Part shown: positions 5,954-44,798 of the stretch, piece after piece
How the letters are laid out: every line of letters starts with the position of its first letter
Numbering within the stretch: position 1 is the stretch's first letter
From: Candidatus Nomurabacteria bacterium
GTDB lineage: Bacteria; Patescibacteriota; Minisyncoccia; Phycocordibacterales; UBA9973
DNA length: 64,000 nucleotides
Assembly (NCBI GenBank): GCA_026396015.1
Contig: JAPLXP010000003.1
Coordinates: 26,626 to 90,625, forward strand
Direction of reading: 5' to 3'
Position numbers and translations under genes: made by a program
The notes under the pieces: model-generated
Databases searched by the model: none
What the model saw: the letters and a program-made list of their open reading frames with translations, nothing else
Told to the model about the DNA's origin: nothing

Positions 5954-8900
5954 TTATTTGTAAAGTTCTTCTATCAAGTTTTTTGTGTATTGTTCAGCAC
6001 TTATGCCATCCATTTTTGGCATTTCATACTCTTTCCTACCTGTTGCTTCCATCACTCTTGACCCCAGTTTTTTTATTGCTAATGTGATTGAATCATTAGG
6101 ATGTTTGAACATAAAATTACTCAAATCTTTTATTCTACCCAAGTTAACATCTGGAGATTCCATGTCCCAACTATTTTGACCTTCTGATGATTGTGATATT
6201 TTTCCAAAATTTTCATACATCCACAATCTGTGTCCTATTTCTGGTGTCTCAATCAGTTTTGTGTCTGGGTCCAGGTTCATTTCCGATTTTATTTCTGATA
6301 GTGCAACCTTATCAAATTGCTCTCTAGAAATCCCCGCCACTTTTTCATCCATAGGGAATGCCTTTGAAGCATAGTTGAATCCAGAATGTATTTTGTTTTC
6401 AGTGGGGATATTCTCTGCTGCTACCTTTGCTTTATTTTCAGTTATAACTTCAGCTACCTTATTACCCCCACCTGCTGATTTTAATTGAACAGGATCTGGT
6501 CCTGTGTGGGGTTGTGATGTTATCTCACCTACTTCATGGCCATTTATGTTGTGTGTTTCTCTGACAATAATATTTGAGTATGTCCCGTCTTCAAGTTTAA
6601 ATGATTTATCGTATGTATCTGCTGAATTTTCGAGAGATAGTTTATTTAATCCTGTTTGTTGAAATATTTCTTTACTTGCATTGCTGTTTGCCATATCTCT
6701 AGCATATTGTATATGTTCTAGGTCTGGACTCGTTCCTGTTGATATTGCTCGTAGTGTTTTTCCATCAGACTCATATAGAATACCTTTTTCCTTTAGGTCT
6801 TTTATTAATTCTGTGTAATTTTTCTCACCCAGTTGATTTTTTAAGTCAGCCAATTGAATATTTTGTATTTCGTGTATTTTTTCAATACTATTGAATCCCC
6901 TGAATGAATCTGCTCCAGCTGTAGCGCTCTCTATAACTGTATTTCCGGATGTGTGTAATATTGGAGTTTCTATAAAGTGATTTTTAATTGCGTAATCTTG
7001 TACTTTCAATAATTGAACTTGATCCAAGTGCCCGTCTGGCATTACCAACGGTTTATCGATTATGTGATTTTCCAATGCTATTTTTTGAAATAGTGAAAAT
7101 TGTCCCGGAGTTATTCCATATTTTTGTATATCACTAATAGAATTTAATTCTATTGAACCCCCTCCCCCTAATTGGGTTGGTACTTGGCCATTATCAAATA
7201 TATTCTTTTGTGAATTTATATTGTTTGATATTCCATGGGGTGCACCGTTTATGTTTGAACCCTTGTAATCAAACATCTTTCCATGGTAGTCGGCACCTTT
7301 TGAAATATCCTTGCCCCATTCAAATACATCGGATTCACCAGTCACTGGGTCCTTGAATGTCAGATTGCCTTGATCGTCCATGTGGAAATTTGCACCCTTG
7401 TGAAGCATGGCGGACTCATCTATTTGACCAGGTTTGAATCCACCGAATTCTTTTGCTAGGTCTGCATTACTTGTATTCATTATATGTTTTACACTCTCTG
7501 GTGCATTAGACATATCGGAACCCCATTTTTCAGCTACTGCATGCTTTAATTGACCAGCAAAATGAATCATACCTTGACCTCGGTCGATAGTCACATCTAA
7601 TCCATGACCTGCATCTGGTATTGGGAGTGTTTCTGGTGTTGGACTAGGTGTAGGCGTCACTCCGCCGTGCAACCATCTTTGGTAGTATTGACCAGCTACT
7701 GCACCAGCAAGACCTATAGCTGCTCCACGTACAACTGCACCCATTACTCTTGCGGTTCTCTTGTCTTCGTATATAGATTCTTGATAATTATCAAATCTTT
7801 TTATTCGATTGAGGCCATTTTCCGTAATATCATTACCGTCCTTATCTTTTTTTCCTGTTTTATAACTGTATAAATCCTCGATACCCTTCATCATAGGCTC
7901 ACCATTTTTATAGACAAGAAGAGCGGCAGTCCCTGTTGCTATTGCTTTGTTTAGTTCAAAGTTTTTTGCAATGTCATCTTTCTTTCCATAGTTTATAAAT
8001 CCTTTGTATTCTTTGTTGTTGATATAGTCTAGTCTAGATTTAATTCTTTGAGCCAAAACTTCTTTTTGTTCTGGGGTTTTTCCTTCTTTGTTTAATTCCT
8101 CAACTAAAAAGCTTATTTTTTTTATTTGATCATCGGCATTTATAAATCTATCTACTTTACTTTCTGAATTTTTTAAGCCAGCATTTTTTGCTTCGAGACG
8201 AGTCATTGATACTTGGTCTCCCTTGTAATCATCTTTTATACTTTTTTTACCAGTAAAAAAACCTCTAATACCTCCCCATATTGCGCCGCCACCATATGCA
8301 CCAACGGTGCTCTTTATTGCCATTCCTATCACTCCTCCACCTGCAAATGTAGTCAAATCACCTGTTAGTAATTTTTTATATGCTTTTTGGGTTGCGCTAT
8401 TTTCCAGTAATGCGGCTGCCTCTGGGTATTTACGAGTATAATTTAAATAATCAAAACCAAGCTCAGATTTTCTTATTGCATCAAGAGCCATCAATCGGGC
8501 TTCTTTTGCACCGTTACCTTGTGATAGGTAATGATTTTCCATTGAAGATATTAGATTATTTCGAATTGCATTATAGGCTGAGTCTATTTTTTGAAATTCT
8601 TTGTACTCATTACTTTTGAAAGGGTTTAGGCCATTTTTGTTTGCAGTTTTCTCATGTTGCCAATCTGTAGGCATCTTCATATATCTATTTGCAATTTCGT
8701 TGTATGCTCTGATCTGCTCTGCCTCTGCCCTCGTACTCATACCTTCGGGAGCCTTAAGAAATACTACCTCACCCGTCTGTTCATTTACTGTTAGGTTTAA
8801 TTCTTTAATTCTTGCCGAAATTTGACCAATAGTCTCAATATCTACACTATGTTCACCATTTCTTATTTGGCCTGCTATTGTTTTTTCAGCACTCGCCTTT

Positions 8901-10834
8901 TGGAAATTTTTTGAGAGACCATGTAGTACCTTCATAAAAATATTTTTATTTGCATAAGATGCAGCAACACGATCTTTTGTTAACTCTTCCATCTTTCGAG
9001 CATTTCTTTGGTTTATCTCCTCTAATACTAGAAGTTGCTCTCCAGTAGAAAGCTTTACGAATCCAGGTACATTTTCAAGGTCAGAAACTTTTAAACCACT
9101 AGAACCAAGATTTTTTGCCCATAGGGGTGACTTGTTTGCAGTGTCTAGCTTTAGTTTTTCTATGATATCAACCTTAACAGCCTCTACCTTTGCAGCTTTC
9201 GTTGCTTCTTTATCATCAAATCCACCATAATTTACAATCGCACTTTCTTTTTCTTCTTCTGCGTGAAATCCTCCAGTCGCCTCTATTACTTTTGCTCCAC
9301 TTCCTATTTCTGATTCATTTAAATCTTCAATTTTTGAAATATGCTCTGCACCTTTTTTGTGCTTTTTCTTCATGTCTTCAAGCTCTTGTGCTCTTTCGTA
9401 ATCTCCTGATTCTTGTGCTTTTTTTGATTCAGCATCTAGTCTTGCTATTGAATCTTTGTCTGCACCTGTTTTCTTTTTATCTAAAGCCACTAATGCTCTA
9501 ATGTTTTTTTCAAATAATTCTGCCGCTTCATAATCTCCTGACGCTTGAGCTGCTGCAGATTTTGCACGCAGGGATTCTATTGTGTCCTTACCACCCAATT
9601 CATGTGTTTTATTATTTATTTTTTTAGGTATTTCCATGGTATTTAAATCTTTTTTAACATCTTCTGGTTCGACTTTAGCTTCTTCTTTTGTATCTAAATC
9701 TTCTTTAATAATTTTTTCTTCAGTCACTACGTCTTCTTTTTTATCTTCTTCTGGTGTTTTTTTTGTTTCTTTTGCTTTCCTTTCTTTTTTTATTATTTCG
9801 TATTTATTTTTAAAGAGAAGTTCTTCCATCTTTTCCCTGTCTATGTTTACTGGTATATCTGCACCCTCTTCTTTGAATTTGATAGTCTTTTTTGTAGCGT
9901 TCAGTATTTCATATTTTTTACCATTCACCAGTACTGTATCTCCCTTTGATAAAAAAATATATTTTTCAGTTTTTCTGTAATCCTCGATCATTTTGATTAA
10001 GGTTTCTCTATTTATTGGTACTTCTTTACCTTCCCCTTTCAAGAATACCCTGTGTCTTGTTTCTCCATTTTTATTTGTCCAAGGTTTTACTGCTGTTACT
10101 ACGAATGTCTTTTCTGGCGGTATTATTTTAAGATAATTATTTATTTTCCTTACCAGACCTTCGCTTTCCATAACTGCCCCTTTTTTAATTTCAATGGAAT
10201 TGTTTGGTTTTTCAGCTTCTTTTGTTTCAGCTGGTTTTTCAGCTTCTTTTGTTTCAGCTGGTGTTTCTTCTGTTTTTTCTTCTTTGTATTCCATTTTAAT
10301 ATTGGGCGGTATTGTTATTGAGTCTATTGTTGGGTGGTGCTCTTTTTTATCTTCTTCTTGTTGCCTCTTTAATCTTTCTTGTGATTCTATCTGCCTTTTC
10401 TTTTTCTCTGCTTTTTTGTTCTCTCTATCTAATTCTTCTTGCTCATTTTTTAGATCATTTTGTTCTTTTATTTTATTTACTAGTTCTTGTCCTTCTTCGC
10501 GTACTTTTATCTTTTCCTCATCTAGTTTTTCTTTGTACATTTCTGCTGCTGTTAGGATGTCTGATATGGTCACTGTGTATGCCTTTTTTTCATCTGATTC
10601 ATTGGATGTACGCATTTTATCTTCAAGCATTTTTTTTGCCCTTTCAGGTTCTCCAGATAGGGCCATTTTTATGGCACCTTCAAAAAAACGATAAAAACCA
10701 AGTGTGATAGTACCCGTTCCTTCTTTTGTTGATTCTAAGTATTTTATTGTTTCTTGAATTTTTTGATCAAGTAGTTTTTTTTCTTGCTCTATTGTATTTT
10801 TGTGTACCACTACTTGTTCTGGAGTCTTTTCCAT
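5954..10834 (-). CDS. Giant (1626 aa) hypothetical protein with low-complexity and coiled-coil regions, TPR-like SGDYE repeats and glycine-zipper hydrophobic segments
   Basis: Single uninterrupted ORF. K/E-rich stretches, AETKEAEKP x2, SGDYEAAELF/SGDYERAQEL repeats, GGGVIGMAIKSTVGAYGGGAIWGGIRGFF and VMGAVVRGAAIGLAGAVAGQYY glycine-rich hydrophobic segments, TPTPSPTP linker. No catalytic motif recognised. Confidence 0.55.
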   Translation of the reverse strand: MEKTPEQVVVHKNTIEQEKKLLDQKIQETIKYLESTKEGTGTITLGFYRFFEGAIKMALSGEPERAKKMLEDKMRTSNESDEKKAYTVTISDILTAAEMYKEKLDEEKIKVREEGQELVNKIKEQNDLKNEQEELDRENKKAEKKKRQIESQERLKRQQEEDKKEHHPTIDSITIPPNIKMEYKEEKTEETPAETKEAEKPAETKEAEKPNNSIEIKKGAVMESEGLVRKINNYLKIIPPEKTFVVTAVKPWTNKNGETRHRVFLKGEGKEVPINRETLIKMIEDYRKTEKYIFLSKGDTVLVNGKKYEILNATKKTIKFKEEGADIPVNIDREKMEELLFKNKYEIIKKERKAKETKKTPEEDKKEDVVTEEKIIKEDLDTKEEAKVEPEDVKKDLNTMEIPKKINNKTHELGGKDTIESLRAKSAAAQASGDYEAAELFEKNIRALVALDKKKTGADKDSIARLDAESKKAQESGDYERAQELEDMKKKHKKGAEHISKIEDLNESEIGSGAKVIEATGGFHAEEEKESAIVNYGGFDDKEATKAAKVEAVKVDIIEKLKLDTANKSPLWAKNLGSSGLKVSDLENVPGFVKLSTGEQLLVLEEINQRNARKMEELTKDRVAASYANKNIFMKVLHGLSKNFQKASAEKTIAGQIRNGEHSVDIETIGQISARIKELNLTVNEQTGEVVFLKAPEGMSTRAEAEQIRAYNEIANRYMKMPTDWQHEKTANKNGLNPFKSNEYKEFQKIDSAYNAIRNNLISSMENHYLSQGNGAKEARLMALDAIRKSELGFDYLNYTRKYPEAAALLENSATQKAYKKLLTGDLTTFAGGGVIGMAIKSTVGAYGGGAIWGGIRGFFTGKKSIKDDYKGDQVSMTRLEAKNAGLKNSESKVDRFINADDQIKKISFLVEELNKEGKTPEQKEVLAQRIKSRLDYINNKEYKGFINYGKKDDIAKNFELNKAIATGTAALLVYKNGEPMMKGIEDLYSYKTGKKDKDGNDITENGLNRIKRFDNYQESIYEDKRTARVMGAVVRGAAIGLAGAVAGQYYQRWLHGGVTPTPSPTPETLPIPDAGHGLDVTIDRGQGMIHFAGQLKHAVAEKWGSDMSNAPESVKHIMNTSNADLAKEFGGFKPGQIDESAMLHKGANFHMDDQGNLTFKDPVTGESDVFEWGKDISKGADYHGKMFDYKGSNINGAPHGISNNINSQKNIFDNGQVPTQLGGGGSIELNSISDIQKYGITPGQFSLFQKIALENHIIDKPLVMPDGHLDQVQLLKVQDYAIKNHFIETPILHTSGNTVIESATAGADSFRGFNSIEKIHEIQNIQLADLKNQLGEKNYTELIKDLKEKGILYESDGKTLRAISTGTSPDLEHIQYARDMANSNASKEIFQQTGLNKLSLENSADTYDKSFKLEDGTYSNIIVRETHNINGHEVGEITSQPHTGPDPVQLKSAGGGNKVAEVITENKAKVAAENIPTENKIHSGFNYASKAFPMDEKVAGISREQFDKVALSEIKSEMNLDPDTKLIETPEIGHRLWMYENFGKISQSSEGQNSWDMESPDVNLGRIKDLSNFMFKHPNDSITLAIKKLGSRVMEATGRKEYEMPKMDGISAEQYTKNLIEELYK

Positions 10835-37318: not shown

Positions 37319-37609
37319 ATGATTGATTTTAAGAATAAAAATATTTTGGGCAAAATATTAATTGGTTTAGTTATTTTTTCTATTGTTTGTTCTTATTTTG
37401 GTTTTAAATATTACAAAAAAATTGCCGCTCAAAATAGACTTAATAAAAATATCCAACAGATCTCAGATTCAGCCTTGAAAGTTAAGGTTTCAGAAGACCA
37501 AAAACTACAATCTATCAATGAACTATCTAGTCAATCTTCTGAAAAAATATCTCCTGAAGAAGCATCAAAGCGTGAAGCTGAAATTATTAATCAATTAAAT
37601 TCTAAATAA
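37319..37609 (+). CDS. Small membrane-anchored coiled-coil protein
   Basis: TM at ILIGLVIFSIVCSYFGF. Stop overlaps the start of the next gene. Confidence 0.4.
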   Translation: MIDFKNKNILGKILIGLVIFSIVCSYFGFKYYKKIAAQNRLNKNIQQISDSALKVKVSEDQKLQSINELSSQSSEKISPEEASKREAEIINQLNSK

Positions 37610-37610
37610 T

Positions 37611-40187
37611 ATGCGTATTCGTTCTATATTGATGTCACCCTTATTGCTCTCTTTAGTCTTTTTGCTATCTATTTTTATGGGTAGTTTCAAGGTTGAGGCT
37701 GCCTCTGTGTCAAATGATTTGTTTGGAGCGGCATATTCTAATAACATAGGCCCTGTTTCCTTTAATAATTGTGCTAGCTCTGACCCTGCTAGTTGTAGTG
37801 GACAATCTTACAAAGTGACTACTTTTTGGGATTCAAGTAATCCTAATTGGACATATTTAACTGGGTACGCCTGGAGTGATAGTATTGGCTGGATCGCTTT
37901 TTCAAATAGCTATGTGTCTACTTCAGGTTGCCCACCAATTCCTAATTGGTATAGTTGTCAGATTGCCTACAGTACCAATACTGGTGTTATCTCTGGATGG
38001 GGTCGTGCTGTTTCGTATGGTGATGGCTGGGATGGTTGGATAAACTTTAGTGGTGTCACTGTAGGTAGTGCTGGGCCTTCTGGAATCAGAGCCTTGTCTG
38101 GTAATGCTTGGGGTTCAGATATTGTTGGTTCATTGAATATGTCTGGCGTAAATATAAAGGAAACACCACCTACTAGCTCAGTAACATTGGTCGCAAGTCC
38201 TAATCAAGTTGGTCCTGATGGTAGTGGTGCTAGTAATCAAACTACATTGATATGGTCAGGTCAAAATGTGACTAGCTGTACAGCATCAGCTTCTTCTTCA
38301 AGAGGTGATTGGACCGGCCCTCTCGGTACTAGTGGTACAAAAGTTGTTCAAGTTGGCCCAAGTGTTACATATTCTATAGATTGTATAAATAATGTTACCA
38401 ATCAAGTTGCATCAGCTAGTGCTCCTGTGACTACTGGAGTAGCACCTAGTGATGATCTTGATGTAATTTTCCTTAATTCATTTGGTAAAACTATCAATGT
38501 TAGTAGTGTTGGTACTTGGAGTAATACGATCACTGCTATATTGACTAGTCATAGTGGTGCTACGAATGTGTCACTTTTTATAGATCCTAATTCTGGAGGC
38601 CCTAATCCTTCAGAAATTACTGATTTGAGTAATTACAATATAAAAGTGTATAGCTCTTATAATTTTAATGTTTCGGGTCAGTGTAGTGGAAATGTTATTT
38701 TTAGCAGTGCTAATCCTCAATCTTTTTCAATTCCCGCTCGAGAAGTGTATTGTGTTGAAGTTAAATCAAAACTTCCAGTATTGCCACCGACAGGTCCTTA
38801 TGGTAGCTATTACAATTTATTCTTGGTTGCTACCAGTCAAAATGTTACTACACCGGTTAATACTCCATTTGGTGGTAATGGTTTTCAGGTTAAAGTTACA
38901 AATAATACACCAACACTTACTTTTGTTGCTAGTACTACTCCGAGTAGTGGATTGCCTTACACTGGAGGGCCCGTTAGATTAAATTGGGATAGTACAAATA
39001 CCACAGATTGTACTGCAAGCACTAATTGGTCTACTTGGGCCGGTTCGCCTACTTGGGCTGGTGCAGGTATGACACCGAAGAAGCTTGGTGATGTGAAGGG
39101 AACGGCTTCAGGTAACATTACCAACACGGAAACATTTACTATTTCTTGTAATTATATTGGTTCACCAACTCCAATTACAGCCAGCGTTGTCGTAACTGTT
39201 CCTCCTGATCCTGCGTTACCGACTGTTAGTCTGACTGCAAGTCAAACTAAATTTACTGGGTCAATAGGTAAACCTACATTGTCTTGGACTAGTACAAAAG
39301 CTGTGAGTTGTGGTCCTGAAAGTTGGACAAAAAAGACATCTACTAGCGGATCAGAAGTTGTGACTGTTAATACTAGTACTACTTTTAATTTAACTTGTTA
39401 TAACTCATCCAATGGTTCAACTACAGATACAGTAAAAATTACAGTAATTCCAGGTCAGTTGCCAGAAATATATATGTCGGCATCTCCAGATACTCTGGGC
39501 ACAGGTGGAGGAAATACTGTCATATCTTGGGACTCTAGACCATATGGTACTTCTTGTGGTAGTCCAACTATCGGTGGTAGTGTGTCATCTCCTGCATGGA
39601 CAACAAAAACTTCTGCATATGGCTCACAGAGTGGCTCACAGAGTGTTTCTCTGACGACAGGGTCTACTTATGGCATTAGTTGTTCTAATTCCTTTGGAAC
39701 AACAAAATCTTCTATTACTATTCCAGTTGCAAATACTCCACCAGCTCCAGCAGTACTAATGCAGGCCACTTTGATAAATGGAAATAATTATAAAATATCA
39801 TGGAGCAGTACAGACACAACGTATTGCGGAAACCCAACAGTGTCACCTGCATCTTCAAACCCTTGGACTACAAAAGATACAGTTGATGGTTTTGAAAATT
39901 TGTCCATCAGTGTTAATACATCTTTTGGAATTACTTGTTATAACTCAAATGGAGATTCAGCTATAGATAATGTGAGTGTGACTCCTGCTCCACCTATTCT
40001 TCCAAATATAATTATGTCAGCAAAACCCCATTCTCTGGGCACAGGTGGAGGAAATACTGTCATATCTTGGGACTCTAGACCATATGGTACTTCTTGTGGT
40101 AGTCCAACTATCGGTGGTAGTGTGTCATCTCCTGCATGGACAACAAAAACTTCTGCATATGGCTCACAGAGTGACTTATGGCATTAG
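37611..40187 (+). CDS. Giant secreted Ser/Thr/Gly-rich surface protein with tandem Ig-like repeat modules, N-terminal part (likely one gene with 40045..42891)
   Basis: Signal peptide MRIRSILMSPLLLSLVFLLSIFMGSFKVEA. Repeated ~90-aa modules with W(S/D)S...C and F.I.C.N motifs. Ends at a stop created by a 32-bp length difference inside a 540-bp tandem repeat. Confidence 0.6.
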   Translation: MRIRSILMSPLLLSLVFLLSIFMGSFKVEAASVSNDLFGAAYSNNIGPVSFNNCASSDPASCSGQSYKVTTFWDSSNPNWTYLTGYAWSDSIGWIAFSNSYVSTSGCPPIPNWYSCQIAYSTNTGVISGWGRAVSYGDGWDGWINFSGVTVGSAGPSGIRALSGNAWGSDIVGSLNMSGVNIKETPPTSSVTLVASPNQVGPDGSGASNQTTLIWSGQNVTSCTASASSSRGDWTGPLGTSGTKVVQVGPSVTYSIDCINNVTNQVASASAPVTTGVAPSDDLDVIFLNSFGKTINVSSVGTWSNTITAILTSHSGATNVSLFIDPNSGGPNPSEITDLSNYNIKVYSSYNFNVSGQCSGNVIFSSANPQSFSIPAREVYCVEVKSKLPVLPPTGPYGSYYNLFLVATSQNVTTPVNTPFGGNGFQVKVTNNTPTLTFVASTTPSSGLPYTGGPVRLNWDSTNTTDCTASTNWSTWAGSPTWAGAGMTPKKLGDVKGTASGNITNTETFTISCNYIGSPTPITASVVVTVPPDPALPTVSLTASQTKFTGSIGKPTLSWTSTKAVSCGPESWTKKTSTSGSEVVTVNTSTTFNLTCYNSSNGSTTDTVKITVIPGQLPEIYMSASPDTLGTGGGNTVISWDSRPYGTSCGSPTIGGSVSSPAWTTKTSAYGSQSGSQSVSLTTGSTYGISCSNSFGTTKSSITIPVANTPPAPAVLMQATLINGNNYKISWSSTDTTYCGNPTVSPASSNPWTTKDTVDGFENLSISVNTSFGITCYNSNGDSAIDNVSVTPAPPILPNIIMSAKPHSLGTGGGNTVISWDSRPYGTSCGSPTIGGSVSSPAWTTKTSAYGSQSDLWH

Positions 40188-42891
40188 TTGTTCTAATTCC
40201 TTTGGAACAACAATATCTTCTATCCCTATTCCAGTCGATAATACGCCTCTTCCTCCTTCTGTGTCCATGCAAAAAACATTGATAAGTGGAAATAATTATA
40301 AAATATCATGGAGCAGCACAGATACAACATCTTGTGGAAATCCAACATCAATACCTATATTGTTTGGTGCTAATTCTCCGAACCCTTGGACTTCACAAAA
40401 TGCAACTACTGGTTTTGAAAATTTGACTATTGAAACGAATACATCTTTTGGAATTACTTGTTATAACTCAAATGGAGATTCAGCTACAGATAGTGTGAGT
40501 GTGACTCCTACTCCTGTCACACCCGAAATATCTATGTCTATATCTCCGGCAATCTTGCCTGCTGGTGGTGGAAATTTTACTGTTTCTTGGACAAGTGCAA
40601 ATACTGTATCTTGTCATGCCGTGACTCCTGTTGATTGGACTACAAAAACATCAACATCTGGATCTGAGAGTATGACAATCGGTGATAATCCTGGAACTTA
40701 TGACATAGTAATATCTTGTTCTAATGCTATCGGTGTACTGGCAACAGTAAGTAGTAGGATTAGTGTCCCTGAGCGTCCTAAATTGAGTGCAACAATTTCT
40801 GTTACTCCCGTCGTAGGAGGAATGACAGATATATCTTGGAAAAGTGAGGGAACTAATAGTTGTAGCGCCACTTGGACAGAATATCGGGCCACAAAAGGAA
40901 CACAAAGGAATGTGCTGGTTCGTGGGTCAACAGAATTCGGCATTACTTGTTTTAATGGAGAAAAGAGTGTGACAGCTTCGACTATTGTGGTAGTAGGTGG
41001 GGGAGAAGTAACAGTTACCTTGAGTGCTATTCCTGCTTTTTCTGGTGGAGAGGCTACTCTTGTCTGGGAATCTACAGATACTGGACCTGGACCTGTTTCT
41101 TGTTATCAAAATAATTCAAAAGAAAACATTAATTGGAGTTCTTGGGCAGGAGCTACCACTGCTGGTAGTGGTTATGCAAAAGGGGATGTTGCAAAAACAG
41201 ACACATTTAGTATTACTTGTAAGGATGTAAACAGTCCAGATTCTAAGGCATCTACAGCATTTGTTTCTATTTCTGTTGTTAAATCAAATCCTATTTCTGC
41301 TTCATTGTTTGTCTCACCTTCAGCCCTGTCTTCTCCTGGAAATGTTGATTTGAGTTGGAATAGTATTGGAACTGTGAGTTGTACTCCAAGTTGGTCAAGC
41401 TCAAATTTTGCTACTAGTGGCACTGAGACTGTCGCTGTGAATAATAAAACACAATTTACTGTTGTTTGTACTGATGGCAAGAGTAGTTTTACTACTGCTT
41501 CAGCTACTGTATTGGTTGGTGGTTCTTCCTCTGGTATCACATTTAATACAAATATTTATGCCAACCCGAATGTTTTATATGAAGTAGGAACAACAAAAAT
41601 AACATGGAGTTCTGGTTCTAATGCTACTTCTTGTGTAAAAGATTGGATGGATCCTTTAAATACAGCTACTAATGGCACAGATACTTTGAATGTATCAAGT
41701 ACAAAACTTTTTACTGTCACTTGTTCTGATGGTTCGGGAAATGAAGAAAAATCTTCTGTATCTGTCGTTGTAAAGACTCCCTCTAAACTTCGAGTGTCTA
41801 TCTCAGCGACACCTTCTTCTAGTTTTGGTAGTCGCTCTGTAGTGGGTAGTGGTGCTGGTCCTGTGACTCTCGACTGGTCAAGTATAAGTGCTACGGATTG
41901 TACTCCAAGTTGGAATAGTGCTAAAAAGGGTGATTTAAATGGCAGTGAGAGTATTTGGTTGTCTGAAACTACTACTTTTGTTATTGATTGTACTGATGGT
42001 AATCAGAGTGCCTCTGCATCTGTGGTTGTAAATATTGTGGATACTGATAAACCATTGATGAATAGTTCAATCTTTGCAAATCCACCATCCCTACCTTCTG
42101 CAGGTGGAATTGTAAAACTTATTTGGAATAGTATTGGATTATCGGATTGTTCACAGAGGTCTTCCTCAAATTCAGGCGGTAGAGACTGGACTGATTGGTT
42201 GGGGGCAGATCCTTCTACCGGTGGTAGTGCTAAAAAGTTCCTTTCTTGGAGTGATTTGTTTAGTATTACTTGTACTGGTCCAGAGCATTCTGCTACTACC
42301 GGTTTTGTAGTGTCTCCTTCAAGTAATTTTGACTTACATGTTTCATTGTCTACTGATAAGACAGTATTTGACACAAATGGAAAAGCCCTACTTTCTTGGG
42401 ATAGTAATGCAGATAATTGTACTCCAAGTTGGAATAGTTCAAAAAATGGTAAAAAGGATAGTGAACTTGTAAATATTACAGGTACAGAAACATTTACTGT
42501 TGTATGTCATACAAACAAAGCTGAGGCGAGTTCTACTATAACTGTGTTCATGGTTGATTCTGATGGATCATATGTCAATTTAAGTGCTACTCCGAGTACT
42601 CTTTTCGGGAAAGGTAAATCAAAGATTGTATGGAGTGGTAGTAATAATCTTAAGTGTGTAAAGGATTGGATGGATCCAGCAGATACAACATCAGATGGTT
42701 TTGATATCATAGATATTGTACAACAAAAAACATTTAAAATTTCCTGTACAGCAATAGGTAGTATCGTTCCAATCAAGAGATCTGTAACTGTCGGGTATAG
42801 AGAGGACCTAGGTGGTGGAGGAGGCTGCAAGGGGTGGTGTCCTATTTCTACTGGTTCTGCTATTCATAAATCAAAATACAAAGAAAGATAA
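40045..42891 (+). CDS. Giant secreted Ig-repeat surface protein, C-terminal part (continuation in +1 frame)
   Basis: Same module architecture repeated about 12 more times. First 133 nt are identical to 39493..39625 in the upstream ORF. C-terminus GGGGGCKGWCPISTG. Confidence 0.6.
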   Translation: MEEILSYLGTLDHMVLLVVVQLSVVVCHLLHGQQKLLHMAHRVTYGISCSNSFGTTISSIPIPVDNTPLPPSVSMQKTLISGNNYKISWSSTDTTSCGNPTSIPILFGANSPNPWTSQNATTGFENLTIETNTSFGITCYNSNGDSATDSVSVTPTPVTPEISMSISPAILPAGGGNFTVSWTSANTVSCHAVTPVDWTTKTSTSGSESMTIGDNPGTYDIVISCSNAIGVLATVSSRISVPERPKLSATISVTPVVGGMTDISWKSEGTNSCSATWTEYRATKGTQRNVLVRGSTEFGITCFNGEKSVTASTIVVVGGGEVTVTLSAIPAFSGGEATLVWESTDTGPGPVSCYQNNSKENINWSSWAGATTAGSGYAKGDVAKTDTFSITCKDVNSPDSKASTAFVSISVVKSNPISASLFVSPSALSSPGNVDLSWNSIGTVSCTPSWSSSNFATSGTETVAVNNKTQFTVVCTDGKSSFTTASATVLVGGSSSGITFNTNIYANPNVLYEVGTTKITWSSGSNATSCVKDWMDPLNTATNGTDTLNVSSTKLFTVTCSDGSGNEEKSSVSVVVKTPSKLRVSISATPSSSFGSRSVVGSGAGPVTLDWSSISATDCTPSWNSAKKGDLNGSESIWLSETTTFVIDCTDGNQSASASVVVNIVDTDKPLMNSSIFANPPSLPSAGGIVKLIWNSIGLSDCSQRSSSNSGGRDWTDWLGADPSTGGSAKKFLSWSDLFSITCTGPEHSATTGFVVSPSSNFDLHVSLSTDKTVFDTNGKALLSWDSNADNCTPSWNSSKNGKKDSELVNITGTETFTVVCHTNKAEASSTITVFMVDSDGSYVNLSATPSTLFGKGKSKIVWSGSNNLKCVKDWMDPADTTSDGFDIIDIVQQKTFKISCTAIGSIVPIKRSVTVGYREDLGGGGGCKGWCPISTGSAIHKSKYKER

Positions 42892-42905
42892 TATATTAAA
42901 TAAAT

Positions 42906-43442
42906 ATGAAAGAAAATAATAAAAAAAATAATATAGAAGACAATAATTATAATACTCGAGAATCTCTAGTAGTAATTCTAGTGGGGATTCTTTTCTTTGG
43001 AAATGTTATATTTGCGGAACCTTCTTCTACTCCACCATCTGGTAATCCTGATATCCCAATCAATGCACTTGCATTGCCTCAGTATAAAGAGGGTGAGGCT
43101 ACAAATGGTTATGTAAATAGAGCACTCGGGGTAGGGTATACTCCAGGTTCATTGCCTGTAGGTGTTACACTTGGTGTTTTTGGTCAAATGAAAATTGGAA
43201 CACTCTCTGGGACATCTGATGGTATGTCTGTATTTGGGGATATGAGAGATATTAATACTACGGTTTTGTGTCAGACTAGTCATACTTATAGTAGTCACTC
43301 AACACCTTGTGGGGCTGCGGGCACCAATAATACTAGTGATGGAAATGTAATTGTTACAAGTTTGAGCGGAAGTGGCTCGAGTACTTCTGTGTGTGTGCAG
43401 CTAGATAATGAAAATAGAAAACAATTAGTACGTTGTCCATAA
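42906..43442 (+). CDS. Small membrane-anchored fibre-like protein, paralog 1
   Basis: N-terminal hydrophobic anchor. Shared ALGVGYTPG...VTLGVFGQMKIGT motif. Ends LVRCP. Confidence 0.5.
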   Translation: MKENNKKNNIEDNNYNTRESLVVILVGILFFGNVIFAEPSSTPPSGNPDIPINALALPQYKEGEATNGYVNRALGVGYTPGSLPVGVTLGVFGQMKIGTLSGTSDGMSVFGDMRDINTTVLCQTSHTYSSHSTPCGAAGTNNTSDGNVIVTSLSGSGSSTSVCVQLDNENRKQLVRCP

Positions 43443-43447
43443 AATAT

Positions 43448-43807
43448 ATGTCAAAATCTTTAAAAAAATCACTATATACAATATTATTAGGCCTTGGTGT
43501 CGCATGGGTGTCTTCATTGGCTCCAGTTGTTTTTGGTTTTAATTACACTCCTATATACAAGAATAATCAAGTTCAAGAAAAATTCGGCTCTCTTGCAATT
43601 GGTAAAAATTCAAACCCTCTACCTTCAGTAAAACTAGAAGTTCCCGGGATTGTTGTTGCTAATGGATTTATCTCTAGTGGGGCAGCCGGAGTGAATATTT
43701 ATGGAAATCTTCAGGTTAAAAGGTTATTTTTAGATAATTTAACTGCTACTTCAACTCCGAGTCCTGTGTGTTCTGATACTAACGGTAATTTGATTAATTG
43801 TCTATAA
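43448..43807 (+). CDS. Small membrane-anchored fibre-like protein, paralog 2
   Basis: Anchor LYTILLGLGVAWVSSLAPVVFG. LAIGKNSNPLPSVKLEVPGIVVANGFISSG. C-terminal Cys pair VCSDTNGNLINCL. Confidence 0.5.
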   Translation: MSKSLKKSLYTILLGLGVAWVSSLAPVVFGFNYTPIYKNNQVQEKFGSLAIGKNSNPLPSVKLEVPGIVVANGFISSGAAGVNIYGNLQVKRLFLDNLTATSTPSPVCSDTNGNLINCL

Positions 43808-43816
43808 TTTAAATTT

Positions 43817-44233
43817 ATGATTAAAATTTTAAGAAACAAAAAGATATTTCCAGCAACCATTATTTTATTAGGATTTTTATTGTTCGCGAGTGTCACATAC
43901 AGTTATACTGCTTATAATGCTAGTTGTTCTGTTGCTGGTTGTAATTTAGGGCCAATAAATGAAGGCGATCAGCCTCAGTATAAAATCGGACCATTGGCAC
44001 TAGGAAAGGCGTCCGATCCAGTTTCCGGTGCTAGTTTGGATGTTTCAGGGACAATAAATGTTTCTAGTTTGTTGTCTTTTGGTAACATTACAGTAAATAA
44101 CCCCTCAGACAATTCTCTTGGTAATTATAGTGCTAGTAATATGCAGATTGATAATTTTTACAATTCTGGTGCTATTAAACGCCCAGTGTGTACAGATCAA
44201 AATGGTAAAATATCTATCTGTTCTTCAAATTAA
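43817..44233 (+). CDS. Small membrane-anchored fibre-like protein, paralog 3
   Basis: Anchor ATIILLGFLLFASV. LALGKASDPVSGASLDVSGTINVSS. C-terminal VCTDQNGKISICSSN. Confidence 0.5.
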   Translation: MIKILRNKKIFPATIILLGFLLFASVTYSYTAYNASCSVAGCNLGPINEGDQPQYKIGPLALGKASDPVSGASLDVSGTINVSSLLSFGNITVNNPSDNSLGNYSASNMQIDNFYNSGAIKRPVCTDQNGKISICSSN

Positions 44234-44417
44234 TTATTAAAACCTATGTATTGTGCCTTTTTTAGAATTGAACCCCTTGTTTTTTGGGGATAGACGAAAG
44301 AAAACTCTTGTAATCTATGTGGAAGAAGTGGTTATGTAAAAGTGACTTTAGTAGCATTTGCGTGTTTATTTAGGAAAAAGTTCTAATAAATAAGCTAACA
44401 ATATAATGCAAAAAATA

Positions 44418-44456
44418 AATCCCTCATGGGCATGGCCTATGAGGGATTATTTTTTT
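44418..44456. terminator. Bidirectional terminator (AATCCCTCA...TGAGGGATT stem family)
   Basis: aaatccctcatgggcatggcctatgagggattattttttt. Confidence 0.55.
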
Positions 44457-44462
44457 AAGTCT

Positions 44463-44798
44463 TTATTTGAGTAAATTCTTGAAGAATCCTTTAATTCCTT
44501 TCTCTTTTTTCTGAACTTCCTCCTTTAAGAAAAATTCTTTGTCTCCAGGAATTGCAGAAAATTTCTTCTCTTCAGTCTGAGCGTTTGTTTCAGACAATTT
44601 ATCTTTGATTTCCTCCTGAACCTTCGTGATTTGTGCTTGATTCCTTATGTTTTTCTCATCTATTTCCTCTTGTGTCATAGGTCGAGTCTCTTCTTTTAAG
44701 ACATATTCATCTTTAGCTATAATTGCAGAAAATTTCTTTTTTTCTTGCCCAGGTACAGTTGAGCCCTGGTCTTCTTTTTTGTTTAGTTCTTCGTTCAT
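44463..44798 (-). CDS. K/E-rich hypothetical small protein
   Basis: 111 aa, low complexity, internal repeat KKFSAI..KE..LKEE x2. Confidence 0.35.
   Translation of the reverse strand: MNEELNKKEDQGSTVPGQEKKKFSAIIAKDEYVLKEETRPMTQEEIDEKNIRNQAQITKVQEEIKDKLSETNAQTEEKKFSAIPGDKEFFLKEEVQKKEKGIKGFFKNLLK

Follow-up and report, generated by a model that had tools for sequence, protein, structure and literature searches.

Putative Sec-exported fibre proteins encoded behind a giant surface protein of Candidatus Nomurabacteria: three members of a modular family in Patescibacteria

Three small genes, here named P1, P2 and P3, follow one another at positions 42906-44233 of a 64,000-nt stretch of DNA (the window) that comes from a metagenome-assembled genome of Candidatus Nomurabacteria, where they are annotated as hypothetical proteins (locus tags NTX85_00860/865/870). 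The explanation that we favour, with moderate confidence, is that their products are exported by the general secretory (Sec) pathway, are stabilized by disulfides, and would be 'headless' members of a modular family of fibre or adhesin proteins, working within a fibre or adhesin module anchored in the cell envelope. That they take part in an envelope fibre or adhesin seems likely because a large surface protein, each time of one kind, is encoded repeatedly next to members of this family. Secreted fibres or adhesins built from modules are, as a general kind, familiar. The two characteristic building blocks of the present one, a module located at the N-terminus of the small proteins (the N-module) and a domain of the large protein (named GYAWS after its signature), are themselves undescribed: both are absent from Pfam, NCBIfam and PDB, and a search of the literature for the motifs and for described fibre systems of CPR (candidate phyla radiation) bacteria found no description of the family.

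The three genes and their family

A first-pass annotation of the window had proposed that three consecutive small paralogous proteins, sharing a beta-rich motif, are encoded there. The forward-strand open reading frames (ORFs) are present as described (178, 119 and 138 amino acids), and the motifs quoted for P1-P3 are all found verbatim in them. The start of P2 deserves a word, as the ORF list places it at a TTG (43433), while independent gene callers, working on four identical or near-identical contigs, use the ATG at 43448. Paralogy is borne out by pairwise comparison, with P2 and P3 sharing 34% identity over 97 residues (BLASTP E=1e-13) and P1 matching P3 at E=5e-5. P1 and P2 did not match significantly when compared by BLASTP (E=0.06), but a hidden Markov model (HMM) built from 32 relatives, P1 being left out, recovers P1 at about 1e-10 to 1e-11; P2 and P3 score 1e-35 to 1e-36 against the 32-sequence family HMM, and among the ORFs of the 64-kb window none besides P1-P3 falls below E=0.005. 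The likeness goes beyond chance and, judged by these alignments, the three proteins are true paralogues.

The family came to light because the search was exhaustive. Run over 1.84 billion cluster representatives, HMMER yielded 112 proteins at E<1e-3; in word-indexed protein searches a 3-sequence profile returned self matches only, and a 32-sequence profile 7 matches. Searches of Pfam, NCBIfam, PHROGs, PADLOC and PDB sequences gave nothing significant for P1-P3, for the giant protein encoded before them or for the small membrane protein that opens the series, and P1-P3 matched no Pfam entry at E<=1. All organism names obtained for the family belong to Patescibacteria, bar one probably mis-binned contig. 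With that contig set aside, we may take it, by the names obtained, as an uncurated family restricted to the CPR/Patescibacteria.

Each of the three proteins has its own set of counterparts. P1 has L005_178, P0006 and P0009 as its orthologues, and the sub-type that it represents, recognized by 'VNRALG' and an extra cysteine pair, comprises P0006, P0009, P0023, P0033 and P0096 as relatives. The orthologues of P2 are P0004 (67% identity) and P0005 (58%). With the first 133 residues of a 491-residue orthologue P3 shares 65% identity, and with the corresponding part of a 682-residue one 45%; in these two proteins, both from sister genomes, Ig-like (immunoglobulin-like) and glycine-rich regions follow, and the chain ends in 'GxVxITW'. 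Downstream of P3 no trace of a head of this kind is left, as the long orthologues, used as tblastn queries, match only 43817-44224.

Comparison with one strain, 97% identical at the DNA level over 40444-44240, showed 8 synonymous changes and no non-synonymous change in P1-P3 (438 codons), and 33 non-synonymous with 56 synonymous changes in the C-terminal 813 codons of the giant protein. P1-P3 are under purifying selection. The small proteins are the conserved parts of the set, and the Ig-like arm of the giant is its variable part.

Architecture of the family

Every one of P1-P3 has a single hydrophobic segment, and this segment is N-terminal. Among 82 N-termini of the family, the chain opens with a median of 3 Lys/Arg residues, continues with some 16 uncharged ones and then has small residues and a conserved aromatic, with Ala at position -1 in 36 of the 82 and Ala, Val, Ser or Thr at position -3 in 61. 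These features resemble those of a cleavable Sec signal peptide, in P1-P3 as in the family, with a predicted signal peptidase I site placed C-terminal to the hydrophobic stretch, which predicts that the stretch is removed. The first-pass annotation had seen in it an anchor; the hydrophobic segment stands for all three proteins, but with the anatomy of a signal peptide a lasting anchorage by this segment becomes doubtful. The readings of P1-P3 as bacteriocins, lipoproteins or sortase substrates were set aside, their termini having no double-glycine leader, lipobox or LPXTG.

Downstream of the signal peptide lies the N-module, a block opened by the conserved aromatic, that reads '[W/Y]TxPTxxPPxGNxxAP[I/L]NxGxxxQxKxGxLx[I/L/V]GKxxxPxxGxxL[D/E]VxG', with 'AWTxPTxxPPxGNxxAPINxGxxxQxKxGxLxIGKxxxPxxGxxLDVxG' as its consensus. 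In many members, as in P3, a C-x4-C staple replaces 'PPxGN'. P1-P3 each combine the predicted Sec signal peptide with the N-module and are, by these sequence features, members of the family. The shared 'LxVxG' motif had been likened to the repeats of tail and surface fibres, and this likeness holds: the segment 'LALGKASDPVSGASLDVSGTINV' (profile positions 57-88), which contains one unit of a fibre-type repeat, is matched 20 times in tandem in a protein of 5556 residues. The 'SDARLKSNIE' at the C-terminus of this protein, read by eye and not as a database hit, is presumably the start of an S74 chaperone domain.

About 34 of the 113 members continue, after the N-module, with a further 50-70 residues that make a short beta-rich stretch and then a closing hairpin 'LCxDxxGxLxxC'. 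In the 32-sequence alignment of hairpin members both cysteines and the glycine are invariant (C...G....C), and the hairpin closes the chain in some members, as in P2 and P3, and in others leads over to a larger C-terminal part. Cysteines come in even numbers in P1 (4), P2 (2) and P3 (4), and in each protein a terminal pair delimits a hairpin of 9-13 residues at the very C-terminus (...LVRCP, ...LINCL and ...ICSSN, respectively). The cysteine loop had been credited to two of the three proteins; it is real, and P1 has it too (VCVQLDNENRKQLVRC). In an AlphaFold model of P3, of low confidence (predicted local distance difference test score, pLDDT, 61), the two cysteines, C125 and C135, lie on paired strands (124-126 and 132-134).

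In other members, what comes after the N-module differs from protein to protein. Pfam matches within family members fall on C-terminal domains only, and these are of the kinds found in tail fibres and receptor-binding proteins: Gly_rich_2 (at least 9), Peptidase_S74 (2, in P0073 and P0107), H_lectin (2), Gp53-like_C, Gp10_C and DUF1554. A single Shufflon_N match was also obtained; its carrier was not found among ten proteins with the 'VLTSD' motif, and the matching region was not located. P1-P3 themselves have neither an S74 match in Pfam nor a tip domain. Because the Pfam matches are exclusively C-terminal and of tail-fibre type, the family can be described, as far as its sequences tell, as a conserved proximal module followed by swappable distal tips. 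In every characterized case that we know of, proteins bearing S74 form homotrimeric fibres, so that the module of this family is compatible with a trimer.

One of the longer members, of 954 residues and with a Gp53-like_C tip (L065, 6961-10865), may be mentioned for its setting. It is preceded by a gene resembling competence regulators (TfoX_N), a DUF5663 gene and a gene for a small membrane protein of the type discussed below, and followed by the genes of ribosomal proteins L10 and L12.

The gene partnership

P1-P3 do not stand alone. Their genes follow that of a single-pass membrane protein of 96 residues and that of a giant secreted protein, the five being separated by 2, 14, 5 and 9 nt, in this order, and the sole strong terminator-like hairpin of the series lies 3' of P3. 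The small gaps and the single terminator make it a five-gene operon, which starts at 37319 and has the triplet at its end. On one side are rny, clpP, tig, ppa and nusA, on the other tuf and the S10 ribosomal operon: the context of the cassette is the core genome of a chromosome, not that of a phage.

The giant is split over two ORFs that overlap (37611-40187 and 40045-42891). It contains a near-identical tandem duplicate of 540 nt, with copies starting at about 39444 and 39984 that show 100% identity along about 180 nt, and the two ORFs are, from alignment of the copies, one gene interrupted by a 32-nt deletion, which may be an assembly collapse in the repeat or a genuine lesion (a frameshift or pseudogene). 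Counting by HMM gave about 14 Ig-like repeats, which contain cysteines, and the protein ends in ...KYKER. Its N-terminal part bears the GYAWS domain, rich in Trp and Gly, with signature 'GYAWSxNIGWIxF' and, in the giant, repeats 'GYAWSDSIGWIAF', 'GWDGWINFSG' and 'GNAWGSDIVG'. An AlphaFold model of residues 30-200, based on 13 sequences, is all-beta (pLDDT 83, predicted template modelling score 0.76). No significant neighbour of this model was found by Foldseek in PDB or BFVD, the best matches being small designed beta-barrels (TM-score about 0.4), and the domain has no Pfam match, whether to SLH, CWB2, CW_binding, LysM or any other entry.

Homologues of this protein typically have 230-340 residues, with a signal peptide, a GYAWS domain and one Ig-like domain; the giant of the window is, by this comparison, a typical GYAWS protein lengthened by about 14 copies of the Ig-like domain. 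Partners encoded next to family members range from about 300 to 1760 residues. Their C-termini (42871-42891 in the giant; L005-L062) almost always read (P)-x-[F/W/Y/I]-x-E-x, with a nearly invariant penultimate Glu, as in VYEEI, KFEEF, FWREL, KYKER and DIQEI, and this looks like a tag for recognition or docking. The partner had first been characterized by its Ig-like repeats and its richness in Ser and Thr; what is kept from genome to genome is the N-terminal GYAWS domain and the aromatic-x-Glu-x end, not the repeats or the Ser/Thr content. In one 889-residue GYAWS protein (L063, 5010-7676) the GYAWS repeats are interrupted by an insert of about 240 residues that resembles, by eye only, lectins of the concanavalin/laminin-G type. 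This would be another route to placing a binding module on the base protein.

The first gene of the operon has its own signature. The 96-residue protein ends in an acidic helix with the motif 'S/T-x-E-E-(A/K)-x-K/R-x-x-(I/L)-(I/L)', and orthologues occupy the matching position in L005, L006, L008, L011, L012 and L014. An HMM made from seven small membrane proteins located it in 8 further loci, beside genes of the family or of GYAWS proteins. Lineages differ in the number of copies, from 1 to 3, of an acidic amphipathic '(S/T)xEE(K/A)xxxLxxL' in this protein (the window, L005, L006, L008, L011, L012, L014, L063 and L065).

The partnership is visible in relatives near and far. Two related genomes have the cassette at the same place, in the order nusA on the reverse strand, a gene of about 100 codons, a giant (1413 or 966 residues), and then genes resembling P1, P2 and P3, the last of them coding for 491 or 682 residues. 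In more distant genomes, the cassette of P0087, beside nusA, encodes proteins of 517, 106, 145, 297 and 310 residues, and that of P0072 proteins of 104, 338, 655, 141 and 163. Five cassettes from different genomes each have exactly three family members, as recognized by HMM, with one GYAWS protein (338-1760 residues) and one membrane protein of about 100 residues. Another lineage has a small protein, a GYAWS protein and one family member. In Kaiserbacteria (CP066682.1) the interval from fusA to tuf holds a small protein, a GYAWS protein, two PG_binding_1 proteins and two family members; both PG_binding_1 genes lie between the GYAWS gene and the family members (L012, 9158-12053), and their presence inside the cassette hints at a connection with the cell wall.

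An independent test used 47 loci from GTDB species representatives, fetched by the canonical N-module pattern alone. All are from Patescibacteria, except one contig that is probably mis-binned, and the named groups include Nomura-, Yonath-, Taylor-, Falkow- and Nealsonbacteria, Paceibacterota and Minisyncoccia. A GYAWS ORF was present on the same strand in 20 of the 47 loci, mostly adjacent, and the small membrane protein was additionally present in 8 of them. Given a genome size of about 1 Mb, such neighbourship is, by estimate and not by formal test, far above chance. A similar scan of GTDB representatives with the orthologues of P2 found nothing.

The first-pass annotation had proposed that an absence of conserved co-occurrence with the large protein would speak against its reading. 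Co-occurrence was found in every related cassette examined and in the independent loci just counted. The idea of the triplet as a unit in other CPR genomes held in part: three members recur in the five cassettes mentioned above, but other genomes have one or two. P1-P3 themselves lie beside a GYAWS protein and a small acidic-tailed membrane protein, and the association of small protein, GYAWS protein and family protein is conserved, in a core-genome setting.

Proposed assembly and its difficulties

The five genes would act as one unit, made of a small membrane protein, a secreted 'base' protein and three family proteins. After export and cleavage of the signal peptides, the proximal modules of P1-P3 would come together, probably in a trimeric stub of a fibre after the manner of tail fibres, and at the cell envelope they would also join the membrane protein or the GYAWS domain. 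The giant, through its arm of Ig-like repeats, would give reach and a binding surface toward other cells or surfaces, a contribution that the head carried by the P3 orthologue would likewise make in the sister genomes. The oligomeric state, the physical contacts and the role in adhesion that enter this scheme are inferred. A surface appendage or adhesin, in the form of a non-canonical fibre system, had been suggested at the outset; family tips, partnership and export support it in part, and the qualifiers 'anchored' and 'pilin-like' are not supported.

Several points weigh against this explanation. No LPXTG, lipobox or second transmembrane segment is evident in P1-P3 as an anchoring device once the signal peptide is cleaved. 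P1-P3 have no tip and could thus take part in binding only indirectly. For the GYAWS domain no structural relative is recognizable, and this makes its role as a base or anchor a guess. The partnership was seen in 20 of the 47 loci, not in all, and many family members stand alone. A neighbourhood of translation genes would suit an abundant structural protein of the envelope equally well. Finally, structure prediction, which had been recommended for the three proteins, gave no confident fold when run on P3: the AlphaFold2 monomer, computed from the 32-sequence alignment, has a pLDDT of 61, and just the signal helix and the C-terminal beta-hairpin are defined. Such a low-confidence monomer would be consistent with a fold that forms solely in an oligomer, though it is no proof of it.

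Alternative explanations

The main rival, unlikely in our view but the first to be considered, holds that the cassette is an accessory module of type IV pili, that is, a non-pilin adhesin complex of tip or shaft analogous to PilY1 with its minor pilins. PilY1 is a large Sec-exported non-pilin protein encoded with small paralogous proteins. The minor-pilin/PilY1 module (for example fimU-pilVWXY1E of Pseudomonas) thus resembles the present set in having small exported paralogues with an N-terminal hydrophobic segment next to one large Sec-exported non-pilin, and in the terminal disulfide loop; in a few Patescibacteria, furthermore, the cassette abuts genes for pilB, pilC, pilD or pilins. In L063 (1-7677) a single strand carries pilT-pilC-pilin-pilD, a small membrane protein, a family member with S74 (P0073) and a GYAWS protein. 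In two Nomurabacteria loci, L040 (3368-12182) and L052 (4447-12079), pilB directly follows the cassette on the same strand, together with pilC in L040, and pilB lies within a few kb of the cassette in L021 and L014. Against this, a pilus gene was present in the flanks of 5 of the 47 independent loci and of about 8 of some 55 distinct loci overall, an enrichment of roughly 2-4-fold, which is an estimate over a guessed background without formal test. No homologue of pilB, pilC or pilD and no prepilin motif was seen in the 64-kb window, and class III signals are absent from all members of the family. The differences from the PilY1 module follow the same line: P1-P3 have no class III signal, Glu5, N_methyl domain or evidence of a pilin fold, and the conserved domain of the giant is N-terminal and unrelated in sequence to the propeller of PilY1. 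Variable binding modules placed on a conserved N-terminal moiety are also known from the modular type IV pilins of Gram-positive bacteria (PilB and PilC of Streptococcus sanguinis) and from the shufflon adhesin PilV of R64, a likeness to which the single Shufflon_N match adds, but the conserved moiety of the present family is not a pilin. The link with pili is suggestive but modest, and does not make this the lead explanation.

It is also unlikely, in our opinion, that the proteins are structural components of the envelope rather than adhesins, building or anchoring a layer associated with the wall or the S-layer, on which the integrity or shape of the cell would depend and in which GYAWS would be a module binding a wall polymer. 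The position in the core genome beside nusA, tuf and fusA, kept across distant lineages, would agree with it, as would the strong purifying selection on P1-P3 and the PG_binding_1 proteins within the cassette of Kaiserbacteria; the repeats of GYAWS, rich in aromatic residues and Gly, presumably recall wall-binding repeats. Yet the tips of the family are highly variable and of receptor-binding type (S74 fibres, H_lectin, Gp53-like_C), the giant evolves fast between strains, with its 33 non-synonymous changes in 813 codons, which is more typical of outward-facing recognition proteins, and none of the wall-binding families searched for in Pfam was matched.

A quite improbable alternative is a new polymerizing pilus, Sec-dependent, in which P1-P3 would be joined head to tail into a thin filament, for instance by strand exchange through the conserved N-terminal segment, and the giant would be tip or base. 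In its favour are the 'GxLxIG' segment, strand-like, in the conserved mature N-terminus, the combination of several small paralogues with one large protein, and a P3 monomer that is not predicted to fold alone. The cassette encodes, however, neither an usher or sortase nor a dedicated peptidase or assembly ATPase, and some cassettes have a single family member; members with the S74 chaperone imply closed homotrimers and not open polymers. Two known types of fibre may be compared. The appendage subunits of Bacillus endospores, Ena1A, Ena1B and Ena1C (DUF3992), are likewise three small paralogues encoded together, with cysteines near their termini. In the Ena system fibre-associated paralogues are stabilized by these near-terminal cysteines, have no signal peptide and are assembled inside the mother cell. 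P1-P3 differ in having no DUF3992 or other Pfam match, and Ena has no giant partner. Sortase-assembled pilins of Gram-positive bacteria were rejected, as P1-P3 have no sorting signal of LPXTG type and their only hydrophobic segment is N-terminal.

We regard as very improbable that the genes are remnants of prophage tail fibres, or unrelated secreted proteins that share an operon. The fibre-type motif and the tail-fibre tips of relatives evoke a prophage, but all members have Sec signal peptides, no phage gene was seen in the 64-kb window, and synteny with core genes is kept in distant genomes; the recurring three-way partnership argues against chance co-location. Nor did a search for a phage origin find any match in 50,697 phage records or in IMG/VR. 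The tail fibres and tailspikes with Peptidase_S74 and tips such as Gp53-like_C, Gp10_C and Gly_rich_2 nevertheless are alike in design: they share the shaft-type motif 'GxGxxxPxxxLxVxG' and a plan in which a distal tip that can be swapped follows a conserved proximal part, and some family members bear exactly these C-terminal domains. They differ in that the family has Sec signal peptides, is encoded in the core genome and has no similarity in phage collections, while P1-P3 are devoid of tip and chaperone. P1-P3 were accordingly not classed as phage-type S74 fibres, having neither an S74 domain nor virion genes as neighbours.

That P1-P3 would be type IV pilins, canonical, minor or degenerate, is hardly credible: an N-terminal hydrophobic segment, a small size and a C-terminal disulfide loop would fit, but the prepilin motif G|F(T/S)LxE, which the same pattern detects in genuine pilins of L019 and L063, occurs in none of the 113 members, P1-P3 included, the likely cleavage site is C-terminal to the hydrophobic segment and not before it, N_methyl of Pfam is not matched, and with no class III signal the assignment was dropped. 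The absence of a canonical prepilin motif had been correctly noted in the first place, for the triplet; the likeness to pilin D-regions goes no further than the existence of a terminal disulfide hairpin.

Features and surroundings of the operon

Table 1. Positions of the genes and sequence features of the five-gene operon, in window coordinates
Feature	Position	Strand	Description	Basis
First operon gene	37319..37609	+	96-aa single-pass membrane protein	ORF; orthologues at the same place in 6 loci
Giant secreted protein	37611..42891	+	~1760 aa; predicted signal peptide, GYAWS domain, ~14 Ig-like repeats	
GYAWS domain	37698..38210	+	giant residues 30-200	alignment, AlphaFold
Frameshift in giant	40173..40174	+	32 nt missing from second duplicate copy	pairwise DNA alignment
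P1	42906..43442	+	178 aa; divergent family member, sub-type 'VNRALGVGY...', 2 Cys pairs	
P1 conserved N-module	43017..43199	+	residues 38-98: EPSSTPPSGNPDIPIN...QYKEG...ALGVGYTPG...VTLGVFGQMKIG	alignment, HMM match
P1 C-terminal Cys pair	43392..43436	+	C163-C177, VCVQLDNENRKQLVRC	codons checked
P2	43448..43807	+	119 aa from ATG; compact member, Cys hairpin as protein end	
P2 conserved N-module	43502..43657	+	residues 19-70: AWVSS...TPIYKNNQVQEKFGSLAIGKNSNPLPSVKLEVPGIVV	alignment
P2 terminal Cys-x9-Cys hairpin	43769..43801	+	CSDTNGNLINC	alignment
P3	43817..44233	+	138 aa; 'headless' family member	
P3 conserved N-module	43901..44062	+	residues 29-82, C-x4-C staple variant: SYTAYNASCSVAGCNLGPINEGDQPQYKIGPLALGKASDPVSGASLDVSGTINV	alignment
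P3 terminal Cys-x9-Cys hairpin	44189..44221	+	CTDQNGKISIC	alignment
Terminator-like hairpin	44418..44457	+	14-bp stem and T-run; hairpin 44418-44448	

Beyond the terminator-like hairpin, a convergent gene (44463-44798, reverse strand) encodes a protein of 111 residues, rich in Lys and Glu, with an internal duplication (EKKKFSAIIAKDEYVLKEE / EEKKFSAIPGDKEFFLKEE); L005 has a gene of similar size, 109 codons, at the matching position, and the protein was given no family assignment. In the 97%-identical strain (L002 and L003, 3795-4400) it is replaced by a forward-strand ORF of 151-156 residues located 3' of P3, which places a strain-level breakpoint just past the operon (beyond 44240). Farther away, on the reverse strand (5954-10834), is the gene of a protein of 1626 residues with a sequence of Lys and Glu reminiscent of coiled coils; it has no signal peptide and no Pfam match, and the HMMs used here do not relate it to the cassette.

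Biological meaning

The cassette may bear on the way in which the ultra-small CPR/Patescibacteria recognize and hold their partner cells. In the few cultivated Patescibacteria, type IV pili and several adhesins are required for epibiotic growth (PMC10633639, PMC11623550). The cassette is a concrete candidate for a lineage-specific device of attachment or recognition, because its carriers have Patescibacteria names, because it lies in the core genome, and because it associates uncatalogued modules with tips of phage type. Different genomes decorate the family with the very tip domains that phages use in the choice of their hosts.

We would propose, tentatively, that the cassette of Nomurabacteria is one version of an undescribed surface apparatus, spread over the Patescibacteria, with which these episymbiotic bacteria would recognize a host or partner, possibly together with type IV pili. 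Its three components would be, in a joint reading that is possible but still doubtful, the small membrane protein, the GYAWS base protein and the Sec-exported fibre proteins with interchangeable tips. That such a cassette would be a distinct recognition apparatus, common to the whole lineage, is a conjecture to be held with reserve. With three sequence models, for the N-module, for GYAWS and for the small membrane protein, this hypothesis can be examined in enrichment cultures as well as in genomes numbering in the thousands.

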